From: Marsupella aquatica
Taxonomy: Eukaryota; Plantae; Marchantiophyta
NCBI GenBank assembly: GCA_973895155.1
Contig: OZ316891.1
Span: 32,251,208 to 32,315,207, forward strand
Length of the DNA stretch: 64,000 bases
Direction of reading: 5' to 3'
This document shows, piece by piece, positions 43,145 to 63,905 of the stretch (position 1 is its first letter; each line of letters begins with the position of its first letter). The translations under genes were made by a program, and so were the position numbers. The notes beneath the pieces are model-generated. The model was not told the DNA's origin. It saw only the letters and a list, made by a program, of their open reading frames with translations, and searched no databases.

Positions 43145-46100
43145 TGTCACGTCGTAGGCTTCGGCCTTAACTCAGACTTCAGCTTAGACGGGCACATCCC
43201 TCGTAAATCTGAGGGTTCGGGCAGGAAGGGAAGCACGTAATGCACCTTATTCTCGTAAACTAGCGCTAAGTGCGCATACTGCTAAATACGAACACCTCCT
43301 AGGTATGGTTTGTGTTCCGCCGCCAGAACGTACCTTAGTCGATAGCAGGATCGACCCCGGCTTAAGGGCTTCTAAGCCTTCGTGCTGTCCGCCTTCGATC
43401 CGGATTCGATGATACAGGTCCTCAACCCGTGCTCGCAACCACTTACCCGCAGGCTGCACCCTGTGCACGTCTCGGGTAGTGCGTTCGGCCTGGCGCTACC
43501 ACCCATATACGAGAAACCCACACACATATGCGCACACATGCATACAATCTCGATTTACATGAAGGAAAATGATGGGAAAGGATTTTACTACAAAGGGAAC
43601 ATATGCATACACTTAGTTGACACGACAGCCCTGGAATGCACAGGTTCAAGGCCGAGGGTGCACACTACAACGGAGCCCGGCTCTGCACTCGCCCGGCGAG
43701 CTTAGTCCTACCCCCTCCCCTTGGTACTCTGTCATTCCCAGAGGTCGGGACTCCCCGCATGTCCCGCGGATGTCCGACTCTGAAACTAAAAACCCCCCCT
43801 GCCTCTACCGAGGGGTGCACTAAATACTAAGAGCCGAGGAACGGGGTGTCCTCACGCTGAAGATTCGCTGACTAAGGTCCTAACTAAGCTGACAGTCAGG
43901 CCGGAAAACGGCTGTGTCTTATTAGAAGATCCTAATTTACGCAGGCTGGATAGCAGGGCAGCGCTGCTGTACCTAAGGCAGGTGCCTGTCCCAAGAGCCT
44001 GACTAAGCCAATCCTAATCCTAATCTATTCCTACTCCGCCGCTAATGCCTGGCACGCTTGCCAGAGCTGCCCAAATGGGAACGGCCATCCCGCTGCCTTC
44101 GAAGCCTGTCATTGTCCGCTTTGAGGAGCTGGACCTGGTCCAGCAGAGATTCGTTCTCTCGCCTCGCCGCGTCCGTCTCCTCTGCTGCCTCCTGACATGC
44201 CTCCTCCAGCTGCTGGGCGTCGCTCATCAGTTTACCCGCCAGCTGGTCCTGCTTCTCGGCCTCGGTTTGGAGCCGCGCCATCTCGACCTGCAGCGTGGCT
44301 ATCTCCGTCGCATCCCGTTGGGCTCGCTCCTCGGCCTCCTCCAGGTCTTTCTGCCAGGTGACAGCTTGTTTCTTCAAACTGTCAATCTGGTTCCGGAGTC
44401 GTGTAATCTCGGCCTCGTTCCCAGCTTTGGCCTGTTCGGCTAGGGCGGTAAGAGCGTACGCCTTTGCTAACAACTCATCGGCGGCTGCAACCTTGGGTCG
44501 TAGTTGCAGAAGCTCAGCCTCTTGAGCCGCCACTTCGTTCTTTAGGTACACGGACTCCACCCGGTACCGCTCTATCCTCTGAAGGGCCTCCGACTGGGCC
44601 CGACCTGCCTTTACGGCGGCAACCAACTCCTGATTGAAGAAACAGGCTACCTTCCGGGCCATGAACTCCCCGGTATCCCGGGCAATTTGGTGAGAGAAAT
44701 CTCCCAGAAGCCCGTTCAGAAATGTACCCTGTACGAAGAGTTCCGGGTGGTCCAAGTTGTGCCTGTCCGGATTTGGGCACGGGCAGACATCAACACGCGC
44801 AGGGGCCGGGGCAGTGACGTCCAGCCCTGGGGACATAACGTTGGAAGGGGCTGGAGTGTCCTCCTGCAGCGATGTCCGGTTCTCCGGAATTGCCACCGGC
44901 GGGTCCTTGGGAGACCCGGGTTCGGGTAAGACCTCTGCCGTACCAACTTCTGTACTTAGCCCGGCTAGTTGGGTTGCATCAACGGTTGCGACGACCGACC
45001 CCTCCGGCGCCTCCTCGGTTACGATTACAGCTATTTGTGGAGGTGGGGTGGGTGAAGCTGGCGTGTCCACTGGACTTCGGGCCTCGGGTTGGGGCCGTCT
45101 CTCCAATGCCGGAAAAACCCACCTAGCTGGGACCAGCTTTGTAACGTTGATGCGGGGAAGGGTTCGTCGATCAAACCGGGCGTACCACTCAAGAATGATT
45201 TCGATGTGGCTAGCGAAATACGCCTTCCCGCCAATGTACAGCGTCTTCCTTCGCCGCTCCATCTCTTCATGGAATTTCTTAGCGAAGTACGACGCCCATT
45301 TCCTAGGTCGATAGTTCTTGACCTGGATAACCTGGGCGGCGGAGATCTCCCCCCGGGGTTCCATCATGTGGAGAGCGTACCTCTGGAACTCTAGCCGCTC
45401 AGCTATCTCGGGCATGAGGCAGGTCCTCATCACGAACCCGTTGTCTACTGATCCCTCTGAGGGAAAACTTGAAGATTGGTACTTGGCCCCCTTGCCCCCG
45501 GGAGCCCGTGATTCGACTCGATGGTCACCTTCGGGTAACCCGAAGATCATCTTGAGCCGTTCTTCTGTGAGGGACATATTCCTTCCCCGCAGCCGAGTCT
45601 GTTGACGTACGTCGTCATAATTCTTGACGAATTCTGTCATGTCCTCCCCGTAGTACCTGCAAGTGTTCCAGGGGAGAGAGGCGAGGTGCTCAAATCCCTG
45701 AGTCTTCAGGTACACCGCATGCTTGGGATGGAGGATGTTGCTGTGAACGTTTTCCCCCATGCGATGCATCGTCACCTTGGCTACGGCTACCGTGGCCAAC
45801 GGTAACCCGGATGCAGTGGCGGATTCCTTCCTCTTCTTTCCCCGTGACTGACTCGGGGAAGGTGATACTTCCCCATCCTCCTGATCGGGCCTGGGGAGTG
45901 CCACTGCGGTTGGTAACGGGCCCGGGGCGGCCACGGTCACCATGTTGTCTGCTAGGGCCGCTCCTGGGGTCAGAGCAGGGGGTGGGGACGATATAGTGTC
46001 GGCCCCCCGAGCGCTTGTTCCTCTGGGCCGCCTGGTCAAGGGTGGGGTAGCCTCGTCGTCATCGCTAAGATCCACAGCGTTGATGACGGAGCATACCTGT

Positions 46101-47156
46101 GCTGGCTGGGTGATAGGTGGTGGGGTTTGGCTAGGCTGCGGCTGAGGCTGAGGCTGAGGCTGAGGCTGAAGCTGAGGTTGCATGGGCACGGGTACGGGTA
46201 CGGGCCCGGCTGAGTTGGTCATGTTGGTTGATGGCCGAGTTCCCATGAAGCTCTGCAGGTGCTGGTAGAAGTTCTCCGAAGCGAGTGCGGACGCCCTTGT
46301 CGAACGGTTGGTACTGGACTCGCCGTTAATGACAGCCCGAACCTGGGCAGGGATGTGGTCGAAGTGATGTCGCTGCAGGTCGATTGTACCCGGGATATTG
46401 AAGACCTCGTCCGGAAGCCGAAGCAATGCTTCCCAGAACCCGATATATTTGTCTCCGTTGAAGAAGTACCTAGATACCTCAGCTGGTCGGTAAAGCTCGC
46501 TCTGAGATGGGTAGTCAAAGTTAAGGACGTAGTGGTGTCGTCCTGCTAGGCGGATGGCTCTCTCGTATTCGCGTTCGATCTCGTATCGGCGCGGGTTGGC
46601 GTGTTTCAATGAATCGGCCAAGTGCCTTCCGGTAGATAGGAACTGCGTCCAGAATCGAATGGCCGAGCTGGAGAGGATCGTGTGCGACATTCAGAGGAGA
46701 TAGTAGTGGCGACCTAGAGAGAACGAGAGAGCTGGGGTCGAAGCTGGCGCGCGGACTGATGGACTGGTGCACTACAAAGGGTTGGCTCTCCTTTTATACT
46801 TTGAGGGCTTGTCGATCCCCGACGTCTCCTCGACGCCCATAGGTTGAACCGCTCACGCTTGTGGTGTACCGGCCACTCCGCCGGTCTGAGTCAGCGTGCG
46901 TCAGTGGCCGCTTCCTTAAGTTCGTTATACGGACCCGAGGGAGGGGCCCCTCCACGCTCGTAACCCGGGTGTGCGAATAGCGACCCGCCGCCAGCCCGAA
47001 CCTGAAGTCCCCCTTATTGCCTAATGATGTCCTACCCCTAATGATTACCTAAATACTGTCGTTATGCTAATAATAGCGGCCTAAGACCTACCTAACGCGC
47101 GTGCCGAGCGCAGTTAGACTGAATCACTCATTAACCGCCGTACCGGCGGCGTCACA
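43145..47156 (-). mobile_element. Solo LTR family B (4012 bp)
   Basis: TG..CA termini. TSD GTTCT at 43140-43144 and 47157-47161. Start matches the post-PPT sequence (39566) and end matches the pre-PBS sequence (17959). Confidence 0.95.
44042..46690 (-). CDS. Intact 882-aa LTR-encoded protein (N-terminal helical region, PQ tract, PMD/plant-transposon-like core, Pro-rich linker, coiled coil, basic C-terminus)
   Basis: Uninterrupted ATG-to-TAG ORF in LTR sense orientation. Homologues in four other LTR copies. Confidence 0.88.
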   Translation of the reverse strand: MSHTILSSSAIRFWTQFLSTGRHLADSLKHANPRRYEIEREYERAIRLAGRHHYVLNFDYPSQSELYRPAEVSRYFFNGDKYIGFWEALLRLPDEVFNIPGTIDLQRHHFDHIPAQVRAVINGESSTNRSTRASALASENFYQHLQSFMGTRPSTNMTNSAGPVPVPVPMQPQLQPQPQPQPQPQPSQTPPPITQPAQVCSVINAVDLSDDDEATPPLTRRPRGTSARGADTISSPPPALTPGAALADNMVTVAAPGPLPTAVALPRPDQEDGEVSPSPSQSRGKKRKESATASGLPLATVAVAKVTMHRMGENVHSNILHPKHAVYLKTQGFEHLASLPWNTCRYYGEDMTEFVKNYDDVRQQTRLRGRNMSLTEERLKMIFGLPEGDHRVESRAPGGKGAKYQSSSFPSEGSVDNGFVMRTCLMPEIAERLEFQRYALHMMEPRGEISAAQVIQVKNYRPRKWASYFAKKFHEEMERRRKTLYIGGKAYFASHIEIILEWYARFDRRTLPRINVTKLVPARWVFPALERRPQPEARSPVDTPASPTPPPQIAVIVTEEAPEGSVVATVDATQLAGLSTEVGTAEVLPEPGSPKDPPVAIPENRTSLQEDTPAPSNVMSPGLDVTAPAPARVDVCPCPNPDRHNLDHPELFVQGTFLNGLLGDFSHQIARDTGEFMARKVACFFNQELVAAVKAGRAQSEALQRIERYRVESVYLKNEVAAQEAELLQLRPKVAAADELLAKAYALTALAEQAKAGNEAEITRLRNQIDSLKKQAVTWQKDLEEAEERAQRDATEIATLQVEMARLQTEAEKQDQLAGKLMSDAQQLEEACQEAAEETDAARRENESLLDQVQLLKADNDRLRRQRDGRSHLGSSGKRARH

Positions 47157-48843
47157 GTTCTCCTTCATCTAGAGGATGTAAAGTTGCCCAAACATGATCT
47201 TGTTTATCATGGGATTGACGTATCTTCAATCCCTCTAGTCCATACTCTAATCCAGCTAGTCGATTCAGTCCCACTGCACTGTCTAGTAGAGATCCAAAGT
47301 CATAATTTCTCTCATGGCCACTCATGCCACCTACCTTGCTGAAAAATATCTCACAACAATCTGATCCCAACAAGTGAAATGGAACTTGCAAATATGGGAA
47401 CTTGTCCCGAAAGGCACATGTCACACCATTCTGAGTAGTGTAGTAGTATATCGTGCTATTAGAGTATGTATGTTTGGTATGAGTGCTATTGGAGCCGATA
47501 AGGTTCCGTCAGGTTTGTGTGAGAGGGTACTTCTCACTTGTGAAGCATTGAAAGGTCATCTTTCAATGTTGAGCCTTGGAGAGAGAGGAGCTTGAGTGTG
47601 GCTATGGTGGCTGTGAGCTCCGCTTGTGTAACATGGATTCCTTGAGTAGTGCAAGGTGCGTTGGCTTGACATACGTGTGTGATCGGATCGATGCGGGATT
47701 GATGGGGTATTGTTGACCGGGATCGTTGTGCCGATTGTATTGAGATTACATTGAAAGATCAGATGCAAACTCTGTTGTGCGGACTGTGCAAACAGAAGTT
47801 CATTTTGGATTGATCGAGCTGGTGATGGTTTGTGGAAATCGTTTCAATCTGTTGCGTGGATCCGTGGTATCTCGGATCTCATTGAGTAGATCGTTAGTCC
47901 TTCAATCTGCTGCAGTTTGTGTTGGCGAATGCTATTTTGAGGAAAGAGATCACAGATCATTGAAGATTGCAGATCGCTCATTGTGTCATCGGATCTGGGC
48001 ACATAACGCTGCTGTTGTAGCCGAGTTTGAATGTTGGTTTTCGTGGAGGAAAGCATTCCGCGAATGTTGGCAGATCGTCGGACAGTGGAAGTCATCTGCG
48101 AGGCTTCAGATCTGATTTTCGACTACTGTGATAAGGCACAAGTGAAGCGGCGATCTGCCGATGCTCCGCGCGGTTATGTGGAAGGGCCAATCCGCGCGAA
48201 GTTGCTGCAACTCGCGGATCCGAGCGACAGGGCGCCGACTGCTCGCAGCTGATCCGCAACTCCCGACTGTCCGTCGTTCTGTGAAGGGAAACTGAGAGAC
48301 GGAAATCTGAATGTTGCCGAAACTCGATTCGGTGTAGCGAAGCGTTGCGGGCGTGAAGGGCTCACTCTTTGGCTCATCTCGGCGTTTGAGGCTTCGAGGC
48401 AACTCGTGGCTATTCTGGGCCGTGAGCGCGAGGGGAGGCACGAGGTCGAGCGCGAGGAGGTCACCCATCCCGGGGCTATTCCCAGCCGCAAGCGCTTAAC
48501 TGGCAAGTTCTCATCCCACCTTGTGTACACACAAGCTTTGACAACTTGTTGTTTAGATTCAAGCGCCAGGGGGCTTTATACACTTCCCGGTTTGTTTAGA
48601 GGCCTATTCTAGGCCAAATCAAAGGTTGTTTCAGGGTTTTTGATACTTCTGAGTCCATCTAGACTCACATATTGAACCAATTTTGCCTTGGTTCTCATCT
48701 ACAACATTGGAGTGCCATTGTGAAGCCTATTATGAAGGCTCTTCCTTGAACCTTATGCACATTGTCATATTGATTTGCATTTGCTTTTGTGTGGAGAGTT
48801 GAATGATCAGCCTATTCATTAAAAGTGTATTATTATTTGATTT

Positions 48844-49146
48844 ATGTACATTTGGGCAATGAAAAGTGTACTTTTGGGCTTAGAAAAGTGTACATTTGGG
48901 GATAAAAAAGTGTACAATTGGTCTAAAGAGTGTATATTTGGGCAATGAAAAGTGTACATTTGAGCATCAAAATATGTACATTTGGCTTAAAAAGTGTACA
49001 TTTTAGTACATTTGGCCTAGAAAGTGTACATTTGAGTGAAAAAGGATACATTTGGCTTAAAAAGTGTACATTTCAGTGCATTTAGTCTAGAAAGTGTAGC
49101 TTTGAGTGCAACAAAGAGTACATTTGGCCTAAAAAGTGTACATTTT
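48844..49146 (+). repeat. Left subterminal repeats AAAAGTGTACATTT
   Basis: About a dozen spaced copies. The motif overlaps the inner TIR sequence. Confidence 0.85.
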
Positions 49147-49366
49147 CCTGAAAACTTTTATTGTAATCATTTAAAATAAAGAAATTAATAAAAAATATTT
49201 TTAATTATGCAGAAAAAATAAACATTCATATTCATAATAATCAAAAGTTTAGAAAATGAGTAGATAGTCTACTAAGTAACTAAACACTCAATGGCATGGT
49301 CTCACAATATATATAATTCTTACATAAAAACTAGTAACTATCTAATTATACCTTAGCTAGTGACAA

Positions 49367-52300
49367 CTAAGTGTACTTGTCCATCCTTTGGAGATAACTT
49401 TGGACAGTTTGTAGAACATTTCGAGGAATCTTCAAACCTCTGCCAACCATGTTTTCTTCCTTCATTCCAGATTTAAAACCATACATTGCAGAATTTGCAT
49501 ACTGCCAATGTTGAGTGTTCTCACCAAATCCTGGATCTCGTTCCCATGTCTTGGTGGACATGAAACAATTGAGATACCTAGCACTCTCACTCACATCAAG
49601 TTTAGAGTGTTTAGGCCTCCACCATTCCACGGGGAACATTGGAGCATATTGTTGAGTCAAAGGAGGGTCTCTTGAAGATGCAATTGGGACTTCATGCTTA
49701 GGGTCCACCTGACCCAAAGCTCTCACCAACCAGAAATGACCTCCACCATTTTTCTTCTCCCAATCATCCTCGGGTCGAAGAAACACAAAGTTTCCTTCAC
49801 AAATATCCTGGAGGGGAATCCACCGTCCTTGTTCTCTCTCAGCTCGAGATCCAACAAATGGTGCTGCTTGATCTTCCATCTCTTCCAAGACTTCATTTTG
49901 AAGAGCTGTCATCTCTGCAGTCTCCTCATCTTCACTTAGAGGACCACTCTGTTTGCATGCCGATTGGTTGACCTTGTAACCAGTGCCGTGGTTAGTCTTA
50001 GGCCAAAATCCATTTTTCAATGGAAATTGATTATTTCCCTCCCCTTCCATTGCAAGCCCATTTGACAACAGCTCCACAATTCTTTCCCAATATTTAACAA
50101 GAGGAAATCTTTCCTTGTATGCTATTGAAGTCTCATCAATGCAACTCCTTCTCAAAAAATCAAGGTACTTGTTAAGGAATGGGATTATCTCTTCTGATTT
50201 TTTGTGTATCTCTCCTATGGATTTAGCTAAGGGTTGTCCACTGGGTAAAAGAAGAGAATTTGTTATTGGATCAGTTTCCCAAATGCACCTTCCGCCAACG
50301 GGAGCCCAAGCTTGCTTAACATGGGACTTATACTGAAATATTGGTACATTATCTCTCATAGAGAAAAGAAATGATACCGGTTTTGAGTGACCTTGAATAT
50401 CTTTGACCTTAAAACTTTGAAGATATTCTTTGTAAGATGCAACTTCTTGTATCAATCTTGGAACTGGATGAATGCTCTCACATTCCCAAACCTCTGCCAT
50501 TAGTGCAAGAAGGGTTGCAACTTCCTTGTGCTGAACTTGATATGATACCTTGGAAAATAGTGCATCAACATCTTCGTGCGTATGACCAACCATTAGAAAG
50601 GACATTTGAACAGTTTCAAATATTCCTCTACTCACAAGCTCCGAGCAAAATGCCATGACCGTTTGGTTTTTGTTGTCCTTTGCTGAATTATCCATTTGCA
50701 ATGTTAGGTGCCTTGGCAAGGGCATGAACAACGGACTGCCCTTCTCACCACCCACGTCCCCTCCATCATCCTCATCCTGTCGGGTTGTGATGGTCTCAGT
50801 CTGACTGTCGGTAGCTCCATCTTCAGAACCAATATACCTATTTACTTGAATATTCTTTGGTTCCAAATATCCCGACAAAAATGCATCAAAGTCAAGTAGG
50901 GCTTGAAAGAAAGGTTTGTGAGGTTCCCAATGCAAGCCATCAAGCATGTCACCTGTCTTGTCTCCATTGTACTCTTCAAGATCTCGAAGACATTTAGCCA
51001 AGGATGTCATTGTGAAATCTGCATCTCCTGGCCAAAGGCCAGTGACACTAAAGTGTGCATATACTCCTGGATCTCTCCCGTGGGTCAACATCCCCGTGAG
51101 AGCGATAGGTAGCGACATTCCATGACCCAAAAGTGATTTAGGAGTACTAACCATTTTTGGAATCCATGTCTTTGCTTGATCCATCTTGTCGTGAATAATG
51201 CAAAGATATTCTCCTGGATGTTGCTTGGCCATCACTCGATGAGCGTAGTAAACATATCTACGTGACATTTGCTCACAAAGATGTTGAGCTCTTCTTTCTT
51301 CAATTTCAGCACGTTCTTTTTTCCTTCTCTCTCGCATCAAACTGTCTTTGTATTCACAACAAAGCGTACACTTGGCAAATGCGCCATCCTTGTGAAAACT
51401 GAAGTTTGCAAATGATGTGCTCCATATCTTGTAGAGAGTGTTATCCGTAACAGGAGGAAGCCCTTCTTCCTTCATCTTTGTTCTCACATCTTCCAAAATC
51501 TCTAACTTTTTGTAACACGCTAGAAGTTGATACTCAATGCTGTCTGTCCCATGAGCCCCTCCATAAGGCATATGAGGCATTGGCTCTGCATTTTGAGTCA
51601 AAAATGCCTCTAGAAGAGCTCGCGCATGCAAGGTATTTGACCTTGTTTTCTTCAAGCCTGTGTTCCCATGGAACCCAATTTTGCAACCCTCCATGTATCT
51701 TCTCTTGTAATCATAATACTTGGTGTGACTAAAACCATGGATGGTTGCAAATGCATCTTTACAGATGACCATACCTTTGAGAACATGGTGTCCCTTATCA
51801 CGAACATCATCCTCTCTGTAGTGGAAGAGGTTGAAAATGTGTGATGTTTTGGACTCGCTAGACATCCCATGAAATTCCATCCTAACATCTTCTATATCTT
51901 CCCTTGGCATAATGAGACAACATTTATGCTTGCAGCAATTTACTCTTTTGATCTCATCGATTGCGGCTTCTATTGTTTTTGAAACTGCCTTGGTTTGCAA
52001 GAGCCTCCTTTTCTTCTCAACAGGATCAACTTGATTCCTCTTGTTGAAGTTATATGGCCTTTGACGACATCCGGATACGGATCCAACCACATGATCCGGA
52101 TTCAGATCATCCCTATCCATTGACTCCATATTCTCTGTACCTTCTACCAGAATGTCTGACAAAAATTTTCCAGTTGCTACTAGTTTTGTGTGATCAATTC
52201 GCCACCGAACCAAACTAATTACTCCCTTGTTAATGCTTGGAAAGTATTGCGATTCCATGACATCTTTCACAGCAACCCCTACATAGTCTTCTCCCAAGAT

Positions 52301-53158
52301 TTCATCATCAACAGCCGCCGTTGCTTGAGGCATAGTGATAGTCCCAGTGGCAACCTTACTCGATCGTTCTGAACCAATGTATAATTCGACCAACTCTGAC
52401 ATCCAGTTGGACCATTGGTAATAATCAGAATGAGTTTTGGTCGATTTTGTTGATGGAGAATGTGAGACAAAACTCTCCTCAATTAAAACGTCGCCATCAC
52501 CTTGCTTCTTAGAGGAAGACTTTCTACCTTCATCAACATTCCAACCTTTTTTATGAACATCGGCCAAGTCCCAGAGAACCCATGAGTCTTTTGCCTCTTC
52601 AATTGTTTCAGCCCCATTGTGTATGTAAGGTAAAGCCTTACTACCATGAATAACATCAGTGATTTTCACACTGATCCGAGACTCACCAAGAAATATGTTG
52701 TGACATCGGTCCTTTGGATTTACCTTGAAAATAACTCCAAGGGCTACACAACACCCATCAATGAGCATTTCAACCTCGTCCCCTTGCCTTAGAGTGTTTG
52801 ATGCATCCTCCATAACAATTGTAGGAGATTTATCCAAGTTATTATCTGGTCGAGTTGAACAACTACCAGTACTGATGCGTTTTGGGGAATCTAGAGTTAT
52901 AGAGAGATAGGCGCACGAGATCTCCCAAATAACACATGAGTCAATGGCATCGAAAAGATTTTCTACCCTTGGTAGTGGAAATGGTAGTTTTTGAGTTGGC
53001 TCAAAAACCTTCTCCACGAGCACACCAATTCGATTATCTCCCAACAATATGTTGTGCACCCTATCCTGGGGGTTAATTTTCTGAAGTGTCCCATAACCGA
53101 CATCATATCCATCAATTGTCAAGGTCACATCATCACCTCTTGAAAACCTTCCAGTCAT
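49367..53158 (-). CDS. Sola-like DDD transposase, intact (ATG 53158; ORF open from 53182)
   Basis: FAKCTLC CxxC..H motif. Candidate catalytic Asp motifs IIHDKMDQ, LQMDNSAKDNKN and FLMVGHTHEDVDALFS. Three N-terminal ~75-aa repeats and a C-terminal beta-rich domain. Confidence 0.88.
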   Translation of the reverse strand: MTGRFSRGDDVTLTIDGYDVGYGTLQKINPQDRVHNILLGDNRIGVLVEKVFEPTQKLPFPLPRVENLFDAIDSCVIWEISCAYLSITLDSPKRISTGSCSTRPDNNLDKSPTIVMEDASNTLRQGDEVEMLIDGCCVALGVIFKVNPKDRCHNIFLGESRISVKITDVIHGSKALPYIHNGAETIEEAKDSWVLWDLADVHKKGWNVDEGRKSSSKKQGDGDVLIEESFVSHSPSTKSTKTHSDYYQWSNWMSELVELYIGSERSSKVATGTITMPQATAAVDDEILGEDYVGVAVKDVMESQYFPSINKGVISLVRWRIDHTKLVATGKFLSDILVEGTENMESMDRDDLNPDHVVGSVSGCRQRPYNFNKRNQVDPVEKKRRLLQTKAVSKTIEAAIDEIKRVNCCKHKCCLIMPREDIEDVRMEFHGMSSESKTSHIFNLFHYREDDVRDKGHHVLKGMVICKDAFATIHGFSHTKYYDYKRRYMEGCKIGFHGNTGLKKTRSNTLHARALLEAFLTQNAEPMPHMPYGGAHGTDSIEYQLLACYKKLEILEDVRTKMKEEGLPPVTDNTLYKIWSTSFANFSFHKDGAFAKCTLCCEYKDSLMRERRKKERAEIEERRAQHLCEQMSRRYVYYAHRVMAKQHPGEYLCIIHDKMDQAKTWIPKMVSTPKSLLGHGMSLPIALTGMLTHGRDPGVYAHFSVTGLWPGDADFTMTSLAKCLRDLEEYNGDKTGDMLDGLHWEPHKPFFQALLDFDAFLSGYLEPKNIQVNRYIGSEDGATDSQTETITTRQDEDDGGDVGGEKGSPLFMPLPRHLTLQMDNSAKDNKNQTVMAFCSELVSRGIFETVQMSFLMVGHTHEDVDALFSKVSYQVQHKEVATLLALMAEVWECESIHPVPRLIQEVASYKEYLQSFKVKDIQGHSKPVSFLFSMRDNVPIFQYKSHVKQAWAPVGGRCIWETDPITNSLLLPSGQPLAKSIGEIHKKSEEIIPFLNKYLDFLRRSCIDETSIAYKERFPLVKYWERIVELLSNGLAMEGEGNNQFPLKNGFWPKTNHGTGYKVNQSACKQSGPLSEDEETAEMTALQNEVLEEMEDQAAPFVGSRAEREQGRWIPLQDICEGNFVFLRPEDDWEKKNGGGHFWLVRALGQVDPKHEVPIASSRDPPLTQQYAPMFPVEWWRPKHSKLDVSESARYLNCFMSTKTWERDPGFGENTQHWQYANSAMYGFKSGMKEENMVGRGLKIPRNVLQTVQSYLQRMDKYT

Positions 53159-53295
53159 TCTCGGATTTAGTAACCTGCACAATTTTCAGAAAAACCATCA
53201 CAAATCCGAATGACAAGAATTTGAAGAGACTCACAATTATCCATACGGTCATTTGATTGCCATTCCGCGAATCCAAACGTTGGCTCAACTATCAC

Positions 53296-54432
53296 ACTTG
53301 GATTGGGGTGGTCCAAATCAAAACCACAAAGATTGTATTCCGAAGGTCAAATTTAAGCATCTCGCTTGAATTGGGATCGTCCGAATCCAAACCAACCTCT
53401 ATCCAACACACCCTCTTGGATTTGGATGGTCCGAATCCAAACCCAGATGGGATCCCAAAGGTCCCAATTCAACAAACGCGCTTGGATTGGGATGGTCCGA
53501 ATCCAAACCCAGATTTTATTTCAAAGGTCCCAATTTAAGCACCGGGCTTGGATTCGGATGGTCTGAATCCAACACCAGATTGTATTTCAAAGGTCCGAAT
53601 TCAACCCACCATCTTGGATCCGAATCCAAACACAGATTCTATCCCAAAGGTTACAATTCAACAAACCGGCTTGGATTGGGATGGTCCGAATCCAAACCCA
53701 GATAGTACTTCAAAGGTCCCAATTTAAGCATTGGGCTTGGATTCGGATGGTCCGAATCCAAAACCAGATTGTATTCCAAAGGTCCGAATCCAACCCACCA
53801 TCTTGGATTCGGATGGTTCGAATCCAAACACAGATTCTATCCCGAAAGGTCCCAATTCAACAAACCGGCTTGGATTGGGATGGTCCGAATCCAAACCCAG
53901 ATTGTATTTCAAAGGTCCCAATTTAAGCATCGGGCTTGGATTTGGATGGTCCGAATCCAAAACCAGATTGTATTTCAAAGGTCCGAATCCAACCCACCAT
54001 CTTGGATTCGGATGGTCCGAATCCAAACACAGATTCTATCCCGAAGGTCCCAATTCAACAAACCCTCTTGGATTGGGATGGTGCGCGAATCCAAACCCAG
54101 ATTGTATTTCAAAGGTCCCAATTTAAGTATCGGGCTTGGATTCGGATGGTCCGAATCCAAAACCAGGTTGTATTTCAAACGCCCAAATTCAATCATCTCG
54201 CTTGGATTGGGATGGTCCAAATCCAAACCGAGATTGGATCCCAAAGGTCACAATTTAAGCATTGCACGCTTGGATTCGGATGGTCCGAATCCAACACACC
54301 CAAGATTGGATTCTGATCAGATGGTCCCAATCCTACAAAATGGATTGGATTCGGATCATCCGAATCCAAACAACAATCTAGGATTAGGACCATTATAATC
54401 CACACATCAAGTCTGGATTCAGATGGTCTAAC
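53296..54432. repeat. Array 1 of palindrome TTGGATTCGGA-TGG-TCCGAATCCAA (~66-bp monomers, ~198-bp trimers)
   Basis: About 17-19 copies. Higher-order period visible at 53671, 53870 and 54068. Lies in a putative minus-strand intron (GT at 54637, AG at 53175). Confidence 0.93.
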
Positions 54433-54902
54433 TCCACAATGAAGATTATGTTGAGATGGATATATTGAGATTGAGATCTCTTCCTAATCAAATTTAGACA
54501 TTCCGGGTTTTTTGGAACATTGGGTAATTCGTGAAATAATAATTGGGAAGTCACTAGAATGCAGAACAAAGTGAAAGGTAAACCCTAAACTTCCCTAAGA
54601 ACTCAAAATAAGCAAAGCGACTAAGACCATAACTCACCTCAGCAGTCTTGTTTTTCCAGTATGTCTCCAAGGTTGGCTCTGCTACCTCTAAATTGATGAA
54701 TAAGTTCATATCAAACTGACTAAGAAAGCTATCAAAGCCACTTCAAGTCTAAACTCCATCAGAGAGAAGAGCTGAGGAGGAGTTGCGCAGACCTGGATGC
54801 CCAAGTGAAGATATGAAACTAAAACAACAATGATGTCCGTAGAGTACCTCTTATACTCGTGGGTTGGTATGTTCGGCCCTGAATGTGCAATCCGATAAGG
54901 TT

Positions 54903-55012
54903 GAGGCAACACCGAGTATCGCGGTTAGAACAATCATCCAATCCTTTTTCAATCCATTGTGTCAGACAAAGGATTGGATGATTGTTCTAACCGCGATACT
55001 CGGTGTTGCCTC
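54903..55012. other. Perfect 45-bp inverted repeat with 20-bp loop between divergent genes
   Basis: 54903-54947 is the exact reverse complement of 54968-55012. Confidence 0.95.
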
Positions 55013-55393
55013 CCAAACTGATAGGACCAGATCCCTTCTTGGTCTCTATCCGTACAGAGATCATCCGTACAGAGATGATCCGTGTAGCGATCATCCGTAC
55101 GCAAACAAGCCTTTCAGGAGGGGGTAAAGGGATGACAAGGTCTTCCATAGACCTCATTGTTGTTTCGCTCTCTGTCGCTCCTCACTGTCGCTCCTCACTC
55201 TCGCTCCTCACTCTCGCTCCTCACTCTCGCTCTAGCTCCTCATTCTCACTCCTTGCTCTCGCTCTTGGCTTGCTGCCGCCGCTATCCCTTGCCCTTGCCC
55301 TAATTGCCTTCTTGCCCTAATCTGTTGCAACGCCCTAGATCTTGCCCATCTTGACGTGTCCTCAATATATCCTGCCACGTGTCACTCCTAAAA

Positions 55394-58300
55394 ATGGAAG
55401 TTGCCAAGAAAACTGTCATTGTCCTGCTCGCCGAAGAATCTGATGACTTGGATCTCTCCTCTGTCGGTGATCTTGTGGCCCTAGCGCTTGGGGATTCCCA
55501 AGAATTTCAATCACAAGTCCAAAGTAAGTTTCCAGAGGTTTATTCATGCATCTTAAGTTGTTGGATTCGGATGGTCCGAATCCAAGAGGGTTGTTTGGAT
55601 TCGGACCATCCGAATCCAAGTGGGTTGTTTGGATTTGGATGGTCCGAATCCAAGTGGCTTGATTGGATTCGGATGGTCCGAATCCAAGTGGCTTGATTGG
55701 ATTCGGATGGTCCGAATCCAAGAGGGTTGTTTGGATTCGGACCATCCGAATCCAATGGGTTGTTTGGATTTGGATGGTCTGAATCCAAGTGGCTTGATTG
55801 GATTCGGATGGTCCGAATCCAAGTGGCTTGATTGGATTTGGATGGTCCGAATCCAAGAGGGTTGTTTGGATTCGGACCATCCGAATCCAAGTGGGTTGTT
55901 TGGATTCGGATGGTCCGAATCCAAGTGGCTTGATTGGATTCGGATGGTCTGAATCTAAGAGGGTTGTTTGGATTCGGACCATCCGAATCCAAGTGGGTTG
56001 TTTGGATTCGGACCATCCGAATCCAAGTGGGCTTCTTGTATTGGATTTGGATGGTCCGAATCCAAGAGCCCTCAATCTCACTTTGACAGTGATTTCTTAA
56101 AACAAATTTCATGGATTTAAAGTCTAATATGAATTTTCACTCTCCAATGCAGAGAGTGATCTGGTGAATACAACTCTCGCCATTTCAGAGGCAGACTGCG
56201 ACGATGGGTTCATTTTGGAGGACCGCGATCCAGGATTTCAGTGGGGACTTGAGTTCTCGCGAGTAAACTTCCGCCTAAATTCATTTAACATTCAGGATCC
56301 AGTGTTATGTGTCAAGATCAGGACAGGCAACAACCAAACATTGGTCATCGGACCCGTGGTCTCTGTGGGAATGATAGGAAGAGGAATGAATTCTATCATT
56401 GTAGAGGTGTCGGACACGATGAGGTGGGCAAAGTTGCAGCTCCCGTCAAAGGCTTTCTCGGCCGAGTTCAATGTGGAATGGTATGCAAGTGGGGAATTAA
56501 GTGTGTTGTCGATGGGATTCTTTCCAAAATCCTACACAAAGGAGAAGATTATTGGAGGACTGAAGGGAATGCTTCCTTTGGACATTTTTTATGGGTTTCT
56601 TTATTTGAAACTCAACATTGTAAACAACCCATCAAAGTTCTCTCTTCCATCCACATGGACTCTTAACAATTTGCTTCAGAAAGCAGGTCTGGTGTCACCA
56701 GACTCAAATGTTTGGATCACCAAGGCACTAGCCTTTGCACACACGCTTGACCTGGAAAAAGCAAATCTATGGGTAGAGTCTTTGGTGAAGTTGAGGAAAA
56801 GTACACAACCACAGAACATAATTGAGTCTACGCCAGCCAAAGGAACTCCAGCAACTACGACGGAGATAGCACAAACTACTGCAGCAACAACCATGGATAG
56901 AGCGGCAGGGAAGCGGAAGTAGAGGGAGAAGAAGCTTCCGGTTGAGAAACCTACTTCAGTTGAGAAGAAGATCACGGCTCCAGCCGAGAAGAAGAAGCTT
57001 CCAGCCGAGAAGAAGTCGAGGGAGAAGAAGAAACAAAAAACCAACACCGGAGTTGTGAATTCAACTCCTGTAGATTTTTCATTACATGCTGAAGATGAGG
57101 GTGATAGGCCACATGCTCCAGAGGAGAAAGACGTCTTAGAAGGGAATGAAGTTCTTCAACAAATGGAGCAGTACTATACTTTTGGGATAAACGAAATTTT
57201 TCTGATCCCAGTTGAAAGTATTTTTGCCGCACCAGCGAGACTATGCTATCGGATGATGAATTTTGATCATGTGCAAGACATTGTTGATTCCATGATCAAA
57301 ACACCTGGGCATGAGCCACATGTCGCTGATTTGATTCCTTTTAATGTCGAGCGAAGAAAGGTACTCCACTTTGAGAATACGGAGTCGGACCGGAAGGATT
57401 TTTTGGCCAGAGTGAAAAAGGGCGAGGTCCAATTTCTAGCAGTTAGTGGTCAGCACTCTGCGAGAACTGCGAGATGGATTCATGATTGGGCAACGAAGGA
57501 TGCCAAGCTCACCCAGTTGGCCAAGAAGTTAGAATTCAGGAAATCCAGAATATTGTCTAATCGCACACCGTCTTCAATTCTTGTTGAGCACTCCATGAGA
57601 TCGAACGCCATCAATAGCACGATGGTGTTTCAGTCTTGCTTTAAAGATACAGTTGTCCATGCGAGGCGGCAGTTTGTTGAATGTGGAAATCCAGACAAAC
57701 CAAAACATGGCGACAACAAAACAAATGCTCAAGACAACCAAAAATTTCAGGTAAGAAATGTGATTACTTTGTATGCATTTCTCTACCATAGAGAGTAATT
57801 CTATTTTGGATTCGGATGGTCTCAGTCCGACACAATTTGTCAAAGAGTATTGGAACTTTTGGAATGTTTAGTACAAGTTTTGTTTTTGATTGAGACCATC
57901 AGAATCCAAAACTATTATCGCACATTAGAATCCTTTTTTTCCAACCCTTGAGTTGGGGATAACTGACTAGCTTTCCTTTTGGATTGTAGGATTGGTTGGC
58001 TCTGGCAAGAATGACTATGGGCAGGAAGGACTTGCGAAATGTATATTGGCTACTTTTTGCGGACAATGATCTTTTTGAGTTGTGGCGGTTAGTCTGTGAG
58101 ATGTGGTTGCATGGGAAACTTCCTAATGGAGCTGGGATGGAAGGAAATAACAAGTCCAAAAAAGCAATTACCGTTGCCATGTTTCGTCCCTTTGATGGTG
58201 AGTTGATCTCACAGAAAGACATCACAAAAATCCTGACACAAGTGAAGTCAAGAAAGGCATTGCTGAAGAAAGATGCCACTAATAAATCTGACATACCCTC

Positions 58301-61300
58301 AATAGAGGAGCTTGCGAAGGATGTGAAAAAAGTGAGGAAGCTCAAGTCTCTCATTGAAGAGTACTACTTCGGCAAGGATCCAAGGAATTTCCCTTCGGAT
58401 ACCGACTGGAAGAAAGTTGTAGAGGTTCTGCCATTGTTGAGTGTTGATGCAGAATTCAGTAGATGCAGAAGAGCGGCTGGTGAAGTTTTTTTGTCAAATC
58501 TGTTGAAGCCAAATCATACTAGGGAGAGTGCAATCTTGCCAATAGCTCTGGTGATGCGCCTTGATGACATTTATTGCCAGAAGTTTGGCGGAGGGACACA
58601 TTCTCGGAGCCAACCGTGGGTCACGTTCTTTAGTGACAATCTAATGAAAACAGTTGATCCACCAGCAATAGAAGAATCATCTCCAACGTGCTCACTTGCC
58701 ATTGTTGACTTCAGTCAAGATCACCAGAAGCTGTGGACGGAAGTAGAAGTTTTGGTCTTTCTGCAATACATTGTGGAGCTACCACGAAATCTTACAATCG
58801 TTGTAGCCATAACTGTTCATCCGGGGCCTCTTGCAATGAATGTCCTAAGCTCACTTCGAAAATTGGGACAAGAGAAATCTCTCACGATTCACATTGAGTA
58901 TGGGAGTTATTCTCGAGAGGATCAACCACACCCGCTTGATTCGTGTTGGGGAGGCGGAATTGAAGAAGTTATATTTGCAGGAATTTCTCGAGATGAAAAT
59001 GTCAATTGGAATGATGTTTTCAAACCCAATCACCCAAAGCCAAAATTCTTTTTTGGTTCAAAAGATACTGATTTTGAGGTCACCAAGATTGACACTGGGA
59101 AGGCAAAGGTTGACACAGACGACGTGTCAAAACCCGAAGATCTAAAAATGATGCTGACCCCAGAAGAGGCGACCAAGGTTTTGCACATGGCCCCTTGATT
59201 GAGATAGTTGGTGCTCGTGGTGGTTGGGTGAATCCACATGCCAAACCCACGCGGATGATACAGAGGATTATTGAATCCTTGTCAGAAGCTGGAGACTTGA
59301 TTCTTGATTTTTTCTCGGGTGGTCAAGTGATGAAGACATCATTCTTGGTGCAACGCGAATGCTTTGTTTATTGTGACTCTCAAGATGAGAGACACTTTGT
59401 GGAAGCGTATGCTTCATTCCTTTGCGAGAGGGTCCCCTCAATCAAGGAAAATTGGGATCCTCGTGGTGGGAGTTCTAGGCATTGGAAACCCACTATTGCG
59501 GATGTTTCTGCCAAACATGAATCAGCTGATAATTCCGAAGAAGTGAGCGCTAAGTCAGTCAAAGATGATGGGGAATCAGAGGTGGCGTATGCAAAGAATT
59601 TGGATGACCGTGTAGGTCAAAGTGAAAGCATAGAACCCTACGATGTTGATGATAACATTGGTCTTGCACCACGCCCTTCATCAGGTGCAGATGACGTCCC
59701 TTTGGAACCCTATGAAGTTGAGGTTGATGACAACTTGGACAAGGATGGTCTCAATCCAAATGTGGTGCAACGAGAAACGGACGGAATTGGTGATCCAATT
59801 GACATTGATACATTTGAAAATCATTCGTCAACCAATTTGGTCGTGGACGGTGGAGACAGACAGGTCAATTCGAATGAAGCTGACACCCAAAATTTGATTC
59901 CCGGGACGGCTATCGAAGTACGTGAGATTCCCATGACCCCAAAAGCCCGTGCATCAGCGACTATTGACAACCAGGCAGGTGCTTCAATTTGTCCTGACAC
60001 ACTCTTTTCAGCTTCTGATGACAAATTGGTTTTTGTTCGTTCACACTCGGGAAGTCCAGTTGTCCTTCCTTTCTCAAAGAAAAAAGGGAATAGAGTTGGA
60101 TCAAGCGGATGGAGGTCACTTGAACGTGATGCACGATGTTATGTGTGGAAAAGTGGGCCAAATAGAGGCCAAGAAGTTTCATTGGATGCTGCTCCATCGA
60201 TTCTTAACAGGAAGGAGTATAAGAGAGGAGAATTGGGATTGATAACTCCTGTTTGGACGTCACCTTATTGGGTAGAACAAAGTACTTCAGATGTCAACTT
60301 TGAAATCCAAGAGGAGCTGGGTGTTGACATTATTGATGAATACGGATCTCTTTTTTCAGACTGAGATCAAACCGTCTGACTTTCCATTTTTTCATACCAA
60401 TCTAAAATACTTCTCGGTCTCACAGAATGCGGTCAGCAATTAGAGCCTCGATATCCACCTACGCTCTTTGGGGCTTCTAAAAATGGTATGTAGGTTTTCT
60501 TTGTTGTTAGTCATTGTCTTGTATTTTTGGACTGAGATTGTCTCAGTCCAAAGTTCAAATTTGGTTTTCTTTCTAAGAGTTGTATTTGTTGCACTTGCAG
60601 AATCGAGACCTTGTCCCATCAAGCGGAAGTTGCTGATTTTGGATCTTAACAAAATACTTTGGGATTCACTTGAATTCCAAAGCAAGGGCAAATCCAGAAA
60701 CATTGTGACCCCAAATGGAGTGCATTGGGATAGATCAAATGGAACTAGTCGCATGTATACAGAGAGGCCAGGGTTCCATGAGTTTCTAAAGTTGGTTTTT
60801 GACCGGTTTGACGTTGCAATTTGGACATGTGCTGGGATGCCGCGGACAGTGAAAATGTTGAACATGATGTTCACTGTTGAGGAGCGGTTGAAACTGAAGT
60901 TTGTATTCACACAGGTGGAAGCCTTTGACACAGGCATTCAAAGGCGTGACATTACAAATGGAAAGGCAAATGTGCTATTGAAGGATTTTCGGGTGGTATG
61001 GAGTGCATTTGGAAATCTATATGATGAAACCAACACACTCCTTGTGGATGACTCCCCCTTGAAGGCATTTGCCAACCTAGACATGACCGGACTATTTCCA
61101 GTGCCCTACACGCATGCCAATCGTGGAGACAATTTTCTTCTAACAATTCTTTGGCCATGTCTTGAGAAACTGTCACATGCAAGTGACATTCGTTGTTATC
61201 TTCTCCTAAACTCTCCAAAGTGGTCTCTATTGCACATTAAGAGAGACAAGGCAAAAAATGAGATTACTTATGATCAACTTAGTAAGAGATGTGCAGCAAA

Positions 61301-61637
61301 AATTTGGAAGTCACAGTATAGGCATAGTGTGCTGGACCTCAATAGCAATGAGATTCCTTGGGCTGTGAAGCACCGTATATGTAGCTTACGTCCTGAGGTG
61401 GAACTTGACGATGCACTTGTCACCTCACTTACTAGATCATTTGTAGGACGGGAATATTCAGGTTTGTATAGAGAAAATCCCAGACACTTTTTGCGGGAGA
61501 TTATAGCAGTTAGGAACAACACCACCAAATTTCATCTCCCTGAAGATAAAGGGAGTTGCAACCGTGACATTAGGGTAGATAGTAAAGGAGACAAGGGCAC
61601 GTGCTCAAATAAATATTGTAAGGAGCACTTTGTTTAG
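55394..61637 (+). pseudogene. Spliced cargo gene: ParB/Srx-like + beta-class N6A/N4C DNA methyltransferase-like + FCP1/NIF HAD phosphatase-like (~1750 aa reconstructed)
   Basis: Exons 55394-55523, 56153-57750, 57990-60485 and 60601-61637 are joined by GT-AG introns that keep frame. Lesions: TAG 56920, frameshift between 59114 and 59195, TGA 60362 and TGA 60377. Motifs: YRMMNFDHVQDIVDSM..FLAVSGQHS..SN (ParB-like); NPHAKPTRMIQRIIESLSEAGDLILDFFSGG (MTase motifs X/I); LLILDLNKIL, RPGFHEFL, VAIWT, NTLLVDDSPLK (NIF). Confidence 0.75.
55561..56065. repeat. Array 2 of the same 25-bp palindrome (34-bp period, ~15 copies)
   Basis: Copies at 55561, 55595, 55629, 55663, 55697... with recurring 9-bp spacers. 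Entirely inside intron 55524-56152. Confidence 0.95.
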
Positions 61638-61896
61638 AGATCTGACTCATGTTAAGCCCATTAGATTGTAAAAATGGGTGCCAGCCCTGGATATTCATCG
61701 TAAGTTTGGACACAATTGTATATAATTATTTCACACATTATCAATCAATGGTCCTTGCCTAGGCTTCTTTGTGCGTAAATGTTTTTACAAGTATGATCTC
61801 TATCCCATGGTTCTTTGTGAACTAATAAGTAATATAATACTATTATAATTAATATAATATAATATAATAATATAATACTAATAAGATTTGGCCTAT

Positions 61897-61976
61897 AAAG
61901 TGTACATTTAGGTATCAAAAAGTGTACATTTGGGCTTCTTAAAGTGTACATTTGGGGACATAAAAGTGTACATTTC
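61897..61976 (+). repeat. Right subterminal repeats AAAGTGTACATTT (4 copies)
   Basis: Same motif as the left end. Confidence 0.85.
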
Positions 61977-62267
61977 AGGACTGATTTGTGAACAAAAGAA
62001 AATACACTTTTAATGAATAGGCTGATAATGGTATCCATTCTTGTTTCTGGATCCTCTTCACACATGTTTCCTATTTATGCGCCATGTTAGTTTGGTGTGG
62101 GCATTTGATTCCATAAGAATGATCCGGGTTTGCAACCGGACATTCTAGTTGTGCTGCGTATTTCTCTCCCGGTGATGTTGGAGTGATGCCCAACACACCA
62201 TGGTGAGTGCTTGTGGTGCTGACAGGGATAGATTGCCCTTAGGGTTAGCACATAGATTAGGTTAGGG

Positions 62268-63905
62268 TTGGTCACCACGGATTCTTCTGGTGCTGCTGGA
62301 TTACCCAATGGACGACGGACCAGTTTCACTCGGAGTGGGGCACAGTTTCGGCCAACGGCATTGGTAGCAGTCAATAGTGCAGCTTCAGACAGTGATTCTG
62401 ATGAGGACTCAGTGACCAGTTCTCCTCGTCATCAGGTGGTTGCACCTTTGTTGTGGGATATGGACGAGATGTACGGGGCTACAAAGGGCCCACGACGATA
62501 CTCTGGTGCAGTTGGCACAATTGATCTGGATGACTTCATCCAGGAGTTTGATACGTGGTGCGATATGCAGACATTGCATAACGCCACGTTGTTTACCCCT
62601 TTCATGGCATGGAAGGGATTATTTCAGCATTTGGAGGGGCCACCCATGGATGACTACCATGAGTTTCGGAAGGCTCATTTGGTTGAGATTGAGGCATGGA
62701 GGCAGCATTGGTCACCTAATTATGTGTCCATCACCTATGGCACTAGTGCGGCTGCCCAACCCATTGCCACAGCTGTTGCCTCTTCTAGCAGCACTAGCCA
62801 GAGTGGCACACCATCCACCAGCAGCACTCCAGCAGCATCCACCGCTACTCCTGCCGGTGTGATTGTGACAGGAACTGGAGTTGCGCCAGCATTTAATCCT
62901 GTGGTGGAATTCTTTGAGGTACTGAAGCAGAACTATCAGGGTGTGAGAACTGATAAGTTGAAGGGTCTCCAGGAGTTCCACCGCAAGACTGGAGAGAGTC
63001 TACGTGAGGCATACACTCGTATGCACAGATTGATCACTGTCACCAAGGGAGTGATAGAGGCTCAAGCAGTCCAGTTTTGGTATGCAATTTTGGATAGAGA
63101 ATTGCGACGTAGAGTGAGAGATGTCACTCTGCTTAGGGATGCAGATCCCACATTAGCAGTTGTTTTCACCCTTTCTGAGCGCATTGAGCTCAATATGGTG
63201 AATGAGAAGGTGGTGACTTCTGGATTTACCAAGGAAGCACCAAAGGCTGCATCTACATCCACACCACAGCCTACTGCATGGAAGAGCCAGAGGGAGAAGC
63301 CTACTGCACGAGAGTCTACCAGCCAGAGACCTGTGCCCTCTTATGCTGGACAGCAGTCAGGATGTTGCACCTGTGGTGGGGATCATGCACGGAGATATTG
63401 TCCAGATCATAGAGGATCAGGGGGAGCATCAGCGCCTGATCAGCGACAGTGTGATCACTGTGGAGCTCCTGGACACACCAAGGATAGGTGTTTCTCACTC
63501 CATCCTGAGTTACGGAGAGGAGGATCCCGTACACATGATCAGGGAAGAGGAGGAGGAGGTAGAGGGGGTGGACGTGGTCGTGGCATGCCACATGCAGGGA
63601 GACAGGGAGGTAACGCTGCCCCTGCTGTAACCATAGATCCAAAGGATGCTAAGATTGCTCAATTGGAGCAACAACTAGTTGCCATGGCTAGTTCCCAAGT
63701 GAGACCTACTTCTGGTGATGGGGCATCTACATCCTATGGACCTTCCACATCCCATGGTCCTTCCACATCTTATGGAGCTGATGGAGATCTTGCCACCATG
63801 GGATTCATGTCTGGCACTGCACATATTGATGCATCAGCAACTTTAACACGTGGGGTAGCCAAAGCTCTTGAGCCCCGAGGAGCAGTAGTGGAGCTAGATC
63901 CATAG
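62268..63905 (+). CDS. gag: Gag-like protein of another LTR retrotransposon
   Basis: RYSG..DLDDFIQEFDTWC, RKTGESLREAYTRM, knuckles CTCGGDHARRYC and CDHCGAPGHTKDRC, RGG-rich tract. The frame continues past the TAG to the window end. Confidence 0.8.
   Translation: MVTTDSSGAAGLPNGRRTSFTRSGAQFRPTALVAVNSAASDSDSDEDSVTSSPRHQVVAPLLWDMDEMYGATKGPRRYSGAVGTIDLDDFIQEFDTWCDMQTLHNATLFTPFMAWKGLFQHLEGPPMDDYHEFRKAHLVEIEAWRQHWSPNYVSITYGTSAAAQPIATAVASSSSTSQSGTPSTSSTPAASTATPAGVIVTGTGVAPAFNPVVEFFEVLKQNYQGVRTDKLKGLQEFHRKTGESLREAYTRMHRLITVTKGVIEAQAVQFWYAILDRELRRRVRDVTLLRDADPTLAVVFTLSERIELNMVNEKVVTSGFTKEAPKAASTSTPQPTAWKSQREKPTARESTSQRPVPSYAGQQSGCCTCGGDHARRYCPDHRGSGGASAPDQRQCDHCGAPGHTKDRCFSLHPELRRGGSRTHDQGRGGGGRGGGRGRGMPHAGRQGGNAAPAVTIDPKDAKIAQLEQQLVAMASSQVRPTSGDGASTSYGPSTSHGPSTSYGADGDLATMGFMSGTAHIDASATLTRGVAKALEPRGAVVELDP

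Follow-up and report, generated by a model that had tools for sequence, protein, structure and literature searches.

Palindrome arrays around the divergent genes of a liverwort DNA transposon as candidate docking sites for a ParB-fold, methylase-like protein

Why does a DNA transposon carry many copies of one long palindrome on both sides of the region from which its two divergent genes start? The question is raised by a 64,000-nucleotide stretch of the genome of the liverwort Marsupella aquatica (contig OZ316891.1 of assembly GCA_973895155.1, forward-strand positions 32,251,208 to 32,315,207), referred to here as the window, whose numbering is used throughout. A 13,221-bp DNA element, 48806-62026, carries both palindrome arrays, one beside its transposase gene and the other inside a gene for an accessory, or “cargo,” protein. 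A preliminary description of this DNA, made from the letters alone, had pointed out the arrays and suggested that the palindrome itself is the selected unit. From the analysis presented here, the arrays appear to be tandem amplifications of a 33-34-bp unit with an element-specific palindrome, and the palindromes may be docking sites for the element's own protein, which is predicted to have ParB-like and methylase-like folds; this reading is put forward tentatively, at a confidence a little short of even.

The consensus palindrome, TTGGATTCGGA-TGG-TCCGAATCCAA, is a 25-mer with 11-bp arms around a 3-nt loop, and each arm contains one CG and one GANTC, as had been described. Array 1 (53298-54436), delimited by Tandem Repeats Finder, motif matches, and alignment of its spacers, holds 15 full palindromes together with decayed copies in 66-bp units of a 199-bp higher-order repeat, with degenerate edges; the periods are 66 bp (14.6 copies, 76% matches) and 199 bp (4.5 copies, 87%). 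Array 2 (55561-56065), delimited by the same program and by motif matches, consists of 15 palindromes separated by 9-nt linkers at a period of 34 bp (14.9 copies, 86% matches). A search for the 25-mer with up to three mismatches gave 44 strand matches, all within 53366-56065, and none in any of 100 shuffles, which bears out the existence of two arrays of one 11-3-11 palindrome. Furthermore, perfect 11-3-11 palindromes of any sequence number 16 in the 64-kb window; the arrays account for 15 and the last lies at 60527, and 20 shuffles gave none.

As described, the arrays bracket the putative bidirectional promoter; a 1.12-kb central region with both putative 5′ exons sits between them. The further statement that they lie in the first introns of both genes holds for array 2, which begins 167 bp after the cargo ATG in a phase-1 intron (55524-56152, plus strand) with GT..AG borders and an in-frame join; homologous open reading frames (ORFs) begin at the equivalent acceptor. 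Array 1, however, lies upstream of the transposase start codon (53158-53156, minus strand), since the N-termini of homologues align to the Met at 53158, and the surrounding GTGAGT...CAG segment (53175-54637, minus strand) is a putative 5′-untranslated intron, by splice consensus only, or else an upstream region.

The two arrays are more closely related than they look. Their spacers had been taken to be unrelated, which turned out to be wrong: the 41-bp spacer of array 1 has a decayed palindrome between a first linker of 7 nt and a second of 9 nt. In these decayed copies erosion has affected the left arm and spared most of the right one, as at 53769-53793 with three mismatches. When 14 spacers were aligned to the palindrome and compared with 500 shuffles each, the score was reached by none of the shuffles for five spacers, by 1-3 for three, and by 27-217 for six, and the six weaker spacers belong to repeat types homologous to the strong ones. 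In addition, a 199-bp repeat of array 1 can be aligned over its full length with six units of array 2, at 142/199 matches. The palindrome remnants in the spacers and this alignment point to a base period of 33-34 bp in both arrays. Judged from the sequence, both arrays are descendants of one 33-34-bp unit, with decay of alternate palindromes in array 1. The two arrays have one and the same consensus palindrome, and the remaining letters of the unit are about 70% alike overall. As for the relative orientation of the arrays, BLAST favors the inverted one (106 vs. 66 bits), global alignment gives 142 matches of 199 for direct and 140 for inverted, and the loops favor direct.

The loops of the palindromes had been said to flip between TGG and CCA. 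Indeed, five of the 15 copies in array 2 have CCA and the rest TGG; in array 1 the loop is TGG in 13 of 15 copies and TCG and TCA in the other two. The flips in array 2 are, however, not independent of each other but follow a higher-order repeat of four units (136 bp) with the loop order TGG, CCA, TGG, TGG. The CCA loops were thus largely inherited through amplification of the 136-bp repeat, and a few events suffice for the flips. In the arms, 18 deviations from the consensus are found among the 28 full copies, and 14 of them fall on two CpGs (position 8 ten times, position 17 three times, and position 18 once). Such a concentration suggests methylation-driven decay.

The motif is also found outside the arrays, at three other sites of the same element. 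In cargo intron 2, a copy at 57806-57830, reported previously as a lone one, turns out to have an inverted partner at 57885-57909; both are hybrid palindrome copies detected by motif matches, and together they form a 104-nt hairpin (57806-57909; -20.5 kcal/mol, z -5.6). Around this hairpin a direct repeat, CTATT, is present at 57801-57805 and 57912-57916, the right one offset by AA, and the pair may have arisen as the target duplication when a small foldback element inserted. Motif and palindrome scans located another decayed copy within cargo exon 3 at 59735-59759, with 4 of 11 arm pairs broken. A solitary perfect 11-3-11 variant, recovered by the palindrome scan, lies at 60527-60551, 44 nt past the first in-frame ATG of a third ORF. 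Compared with the array palindrome, arm positions 6, 8, and 9 are changed, and in all three cases the opposite arm compensates. The exact half-site pattern TTGGAYTSRGA has 56 strand hits in the window: 52 in the arrays, four in the other 10,440 bp of the element, and none in the 50,779 bp outside it. No flank sequence is shared among the four non-coding contexts of the motif (12 comparisons, in the lowest of which 65 of 300 shuffles reached the score). A single “introner” family as the source of the introns was also considered and dropped, all 12 flank comparisons being non-significant. The idea that conservation acts on the palindrome as a unit therefore holds, though not for the reason first given: unrelated spacers fail as an argument, but the recurrence of the motif at 57806/57885, 59735, and 60527 in unrelated contexts and the compensated variant at 60527 provide better grounds.

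What could be the partner of such sites? The cargo gene starts at exon 1 (55394-55523, plus strand), which has an ATG and a GTAAGT donor and joins in frame to exon 2 (56153-57750). By structure models and homologue alignment, exon 2 probably encodes a weak PH/PTB-like N-domain, a Lys-rich linker, and a ParB/Srx-fold domain. Intron 2 (57751-57989) is indicated by the Calypogeia homologue P0063, which reads across the junction, and by other homologue ORFs that end just past the donor. Exon 3 (57990-60364) comprises, from models and homologues, a helical region, a beta-class methylase fold without motif IV, a disordered acidic tail, and a small C-terminal domain. Homologues of the family occur in liverworts and mosses. 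The exon 2 model was built on nine sequences, with a predicted local distance difference test score (pLDDT) of 73-91 over most of the ParB-like domain. In this predicted model, residues 345-490 superimpose on the N-domains of ParB, Noc, and KorB with Z 10.0-10.4 and root-mean-square deviations of 2.2-2.6 over 92-98 residues, and all of the top rows obtained with Foldseek are ParB, Noc, or Srx (sulfiredoxin). Sequence searches with the ParB-like segment in Pfam, NCBIfam, and PHROGs found no ParB family, and the likeness was revealed by the fold search alone.

The methylase-like part was modeled on homologue P0062 (core pLDDT 65-81), whose predicted core has the full beta-class fold and best resembles CcrM (Z 14.9), M.MboIIA (14.8), and M.RsrI (13.5). 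In sequence, the profile matches residues 224-280 of M.RsrI only, around motif I (E 2.1e-5), and the hit to PF01555 (25.8 bits) is just under the cut-off of 26.7. The catalytic motif IV, (D/N/S)PP(Y/F/W/H), is absent from all four homologues and all three cargo segments of the window; in its place DFS(R/Q), DFGR, or DLAR is found, with DFSR following the strand 227-231 of the model. The domain thus probably binds DNA but does not methylate it, because the catalytic motif is missing. The link to GANTC methylation of the HinfI/CcrM type that had been drawn from the arms loses its basis for the same reason.

Taken with these features, the two arrays can be pictured as follows. The cargo protein, probably a dimer, would bind palindromes on both sides of the divergent promoters and from there control or shield transcription or chromatin of the element, as KorB or ParB do from palindromic sites; it would act through binding and not through methylation. 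The number of sites would change between copies by unequal crossing-over and slippage at the hairpin-prone unit. Docking of this kind is supported by the restriction of the motif to the element, its occurrence in unrelated contexts, the compensated 60527 variant, the identical consensus of the arrays, and the ParB/Srx and methylase folds of the protein. It is ranked first here because of a published pairing of ParB-like genes with arrays in algal transposons. In that sense a parS-like reading, fitting both the ParB/Srx-fold domain of the model and the report from red algae, is partly supported. A more far-reaching version is doubtful: a working eukaryotic counterpart of ParB/parS in a land-plant transposon, in which a dimer with a dead methylase domain would load on the palindromes around the bidirectional promoter and on single sites, spread or bridge, and set the chromatin of the element, with protein and half-sites co-evolving symmetrically.

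Several observations weigh against the cargo protein as the partner of the palindromes. In this copy two lesions disrupt the cargo gene, an in-frame TAG (56920-56922) and a 1-bp deletion that shifts the frame near 59196; homologues are open at both and read AP-x-(F/Y/W)-E-M at the frameshift. The N-domain of bacterial ParB is a CTP-binding domain and not the part that reads sequence, and its CTP-binding arginine patch is GERRxR. At this place the cargo protein has SGQHSAR, the last Arg being partly kept, and SGQHSA plus A are invariant in nine of nine aligned sequences. No helix-turn-helix was aligned in structure matches whose ranges stop at ParB residues ~130-150, and the helical stretch behind the domain (residues 60-190 of model 2) was given no search of its own. 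On the side of the sites, none of the deviations among the 28 copies is compensated, alternate palindromes of array 1 have eroded, and the symmetry kept at variable positions would fit base pairing at least as well as recognition by a protein. Copies were also compared in public sequencing runs, where depths are rough sums over contigs. An organism A contig (loose end at 55588) has a single palindrome in cargo intron 1, which indicates that array length is not conserved. In organism B, three bins of array 1 (53456-53557, 53864-53965, and 54170-54271) reach depths of 36,000-72,000, vs. 150-2,400 in neighboring bins. Finally, the published red-algal parallel is itself a hypothesis.

This parallel is nevertheless the closest one. 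In red-algal Plavaka families, tandem arrays of inverted repeats adjoin a ParB-like gene, PAG3, and self-binding of the transposon has been proposed (Petroll et al., bioRxiv 10.1101/2025.02.11.637652). As far as it is described there, this EnSpm/CACTA-type system shares with the Marsupella element the giant size, an accessory protein with a ParB-like N-domain, adjoining inverted-repeat arrays, and the self-binding hypothesis, and the best HHpred hit of PAG3, 7BNR, is the second-ranked structure match of the cargo domain. The systems differ in that the transposase is here of another superfamily, Sola1-like with a DUF7869 domain, the ParB-like domain is fused to a beta-class methylase fold instead of a 2OG oxygenase, and the arrays are situated in 5′ introns of both divergent genes (putatively so for array 1) in a land-plant lineage. 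A second relative is Sola1-1_Ec32 of Ectocarpus, an element of more than 10 kb with an opposite-strand gene for a protein of ~1100 amino acids having ParB-like and DNA methyltransferase domains, which is suggested to bind and modify its own transposon (Dinatale et al., 2025; PMC12477816). It is likewise a Sola-1 element of >10 kb with a ParB-like and methylase gene on the opposite strand, but the description of it drawn on here mentions no palindrome arrays, and the Marsupella element lacks motif IV and has a third, NIF-like gene. The bacterial systems ParB-parS, KorB-OB, and Noc-NBS have in common with it the ParB/Srx-fold N-domain (7bnk, 6sdk, 8qa8, and 7ol9 were matched) and palindromic sites, often several and, in KorB, some beside promoters. 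Here, in contrast, GERRxR is not kept, no helix-turn-helix aligned in the N-domain match, the predicted site is 25 bp (11-3-11) vs. 13-16 bp, and the carrier is a eukaryotic transposon. Transposons that pair a ParB-like accessory gene with arrays of inverted repeats have already been published for algae. New in the present case are a host among land plants, a fused methylase fold that lacks the catalytic motif, the arrays in putative 5′ introns around a divergent promoter, and a natural series of site variants. In a literature search of limited coverage, no such design was found for bryophytes.

Two other explanations dispense with a protein. The arrays, transcribed within 5′ introns, may fold into long, near-perfect double-stranded RNA that feeds Dicer-type small-RNA production and methylation, and would then be silencing hot spots or self-limiting devices; such a structural role is considered rather unlikely. 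RNA of the intron 55524-56152 folds with -389.3 kcal/mol, vs. -202.6 ± 6.6 for shuffles (z -28), and a TGG unit followed by a CCA unit makes a perfect 25-bp stem (-30 kcal/mol as DNA). However, the fold is no evidence of use, because any tandem array of palindromes must fold so. The full compensation at 60527 and the methylation suggested by CpG decay would also fit such RNA, as would the arm variants of array 2, all of them C-to-T on the sense strand, where G-U pairs would be kept; array 1 has no such strand bias. Rfam 15 gave sub-threshold matches to many unrelated microRNA-precursor models, pointing to a generic hairpin shape: of 28 matches at E up to 0.1, none reached the gathering threshold, the best being MIR2630 with 57.7 bits vs. 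144. There is a precedent in maize, where the palindrome-rich region of Sirevirus long terminal repeats (LTRs) is a measured hot spot of small interfering RNAs (siRNAs) (Bousios et al., 2016; PMC4728375). As reported there, those palindromes are likewise transposon-specific, hairpin-capable, and part of a cis-regulatory region, but they belong to a retrotransposon LTR with measured siRNAs, whereas the present element is a DNA transposon known from its sequence. Moreover, the 11-bp stem of one palindrome is not long enough for Dicer, and the repeated association with ParB-like genes seen in other transposons would be left unexplained. Or the arrays may be a neutral minisatellite, a hairpin-prone unit expanded by slippage or unequal crossing-over without any function, its symmetry coming from hairpin-templated repair or recent origin, a case that we hold to be unlikely. 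The 199- and 136-bp higher-order repeats, the degenerate edges, loop flips inherited with the repeat, array sizes that vary between copies down to one unit, uncompensated CpG decay, and decayed alternate units are all in its favor. Tandem repeats are common inside transposons and have been described as satellite seeds in DNA transposons (PMC12628747); internal arrays, higher-order repeats, and variable copy number are features in common with that description, while the unit here also occurs singly in the element and is paired with a ParB-fold gene. A neutral origin gives no account of why the motif also stands singly at three further places in the element, why the variant at 60527 is perfect and fully compensated, why the palindromes are identical in two arrays whose other letters differ, or why arrays are present in three organisms.

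The remaining explanations keep a binding site or target but change its partner or origin. The palindromes could serve another factor, the transposase at an internal transposition enhancer or a host transcription factor at an intronic enhancer, which is improbable. The palindromic form and the position beside both promoters would suit it, and the transposase has an N-terminus of three similar modules of ~45 amino acids (51800-53158, minus strand) with a weak match to TNP1/En/Spm (PF03017, E 0.0011, below the cut-off). However, the ends of the element carry a different, ~22-bp repeat with a TGTACA core, the expected site of the transposase. The palindrome arm holds GATTCG, a possible site for a host factor of the GARP/LUX type. 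That the arms form clustered GANTC targets for N6-adenine modification by the cargo methylase is highly improbable: GANTC occurs at 33.5 per kb in the arrays, vs. 4.1 per kb for the remainder of the element, and the best structural match, CcrM, is a GANTC enzyme, but a single repeated word accounts for the enrichment, M.MboIIA and others tie with CcrM, and motif IV is missing throughout. No less improbable is a generic satellite or MITE (miniature inverted-repeat transposable element) that landed in the element independently of the family. The CTATT repeat flanking the intron-2 hairpin and the three deep bins of organism B would speak for it. Contigs of organism B at these bins have a different spacer, again with a decayed palindrome copy, and the deep unit could be a product of longer arrays or of a separate expansion. 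Against it, within the window the exact half-site is confined to the element. In run X1 of organism A, the bins of array 2 have depths of 317-956 vs. 158-267 in the flanks, which fits 4-15-fold repetition within each element and needs no separate satellite. The segment 57720-58180 shows no depth peak in three of four runs and ~1.5 times the depth of neighboring bins in X1. The palindrome pattern had no match in the metagenome contigs and none in the viral contigs searched. In the same metagenome contigs, a search with the cargo alignment gave 142 pattern matches, none of which was confirmed. Spread outside the family, which the preliminary description had regarded as fatal to its view, is thus seen neither in the window nor in organism A, but one array-1 unit is very abundant in organism B. 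Joints in run X3 that link array 1 to array 2 were set aside, as their sides are only 20-33 letters long and they are probably repeat artifacts.

The limits of the host element are well defined. Perfect 26-bp terminal inverted repeats (48806-48831, plus strand, and 62001-62026, minus strand) are flanked by a target site duplication, AATG, at 48802-48805 and 62027-62030. Contigs of three public runs (X1, X2, and X3) contain the empty site, in which 48801 is joined to 62027 with 13225 skipped and four letters shared. Inside the ends are subterminal repeats of the ~22-bp family already mentioned, which has no relation to the palindrome: an array at 48845-49146 on the left, found by Tandem Repeats Finder (repeat families D4 and D18), and repeats of the same family at 61880-61975 on the right, assigned by repeat-family comparison. 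Sola1 target duplications are 4 bp long with a preference for AWWT/AWDT (PMC3845634), and AATG agrees in length and, at three of four positions, with AWDT. With a DUF7869 transposase, a 4-bp target duplication, and terminal inverted repeats all present, the element is, by its sequence, a Sola1-type DNA transposon. Its family is represented by summed contig depths from hundreds to hundreds of thousands, being highly repeated in organisms A and B and present in organism C. The insertion target was another repeat, since the flanks 48600-48800 and 62030-62300 are deep in all runs and its uninterrupted form occurs on contigs. The window as a whole is a nest of transposons with several long repeat pairs, e.g., 21048/40934 at 99%. 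A Gag-like ORF with a CCHC knuckle (62256-63905) and an ORF for 882 amino acids of coiled coil (44042-46690) are parts of other repeats, and a different repeat contains an unrelated tandem array at 7210-7511 (GGATAGCGGACAC-type units; periods 13, 20, and 33 bp).

The transposase coding sequence (49367-53158, minus strand) encodes 1,263 amino acids and is identified by PF25273 (E 1.6e-43; 149 bits vs. a cut-off of 26) and homologue alignment. PF25273 is DUF7869, which we take to be the Sola1-like transposase domain. It has 61 homologues, the best with 53% identity, and the named ones are mostly from the liverwort Riccia and mosses. A phmmer search against the PDB gave no hits, and a literature search on the name DUF7869 found no papers. 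Between the two genes lies a perfect inverted repeat with 45-bp arms and a 20-nt loop (54903-55012; -56.7 kcal/mol as DNA). On the main contig of organism A (X1) covering 54846-55039, 26 nt of its right arm are missing, and this repeat was dropped as a part of the palindrome system, since it is probably restricted to the present copy or to a few copies of the family. The central region also has a 15-nt repeat (3.5 copies, 55048-55100) and a 13-nt CT-rich repeat (~7 copies, 55175-55265), of which organism B copies differ by whole units. The third ORF (60483-61637, plus strand) has a NIF/FCP1-like phosphatase domain (PF03031, E 2.4e-14), with DLNK in place of DxDx(T/V), the usual start of such domains. 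Its hydrophobic N-terminus spans the palindrome at 60527, and a GTATGT...CAG pair there would break the frame.

The idea at stake is that giant DNA transposons took up a DNA-recognition module of bacteria or phages to mark or control their own DNA. If the palindromes are landing sites of the cargo protein, the Marsupella element would be a clean test case for an idea that has so far been proposed for algal transposons only. It is suited to such a test by a sharp 25-bp cis site with perfect, compensated, hybrid, and decayed natural variants, and by a trans factor with recognizable folds in a family that is present at high copy number in at least two related organisms and has liverwort and moss homologues. 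The case also illustrates how sites can turn into minisatellites, a route from transposon parts to satellite DNA. If the proposal is true, this element, together with the algal and animal cases, would point to a self-recognition system that giant DNA transposons acquired horizontally and that is widespread among them.

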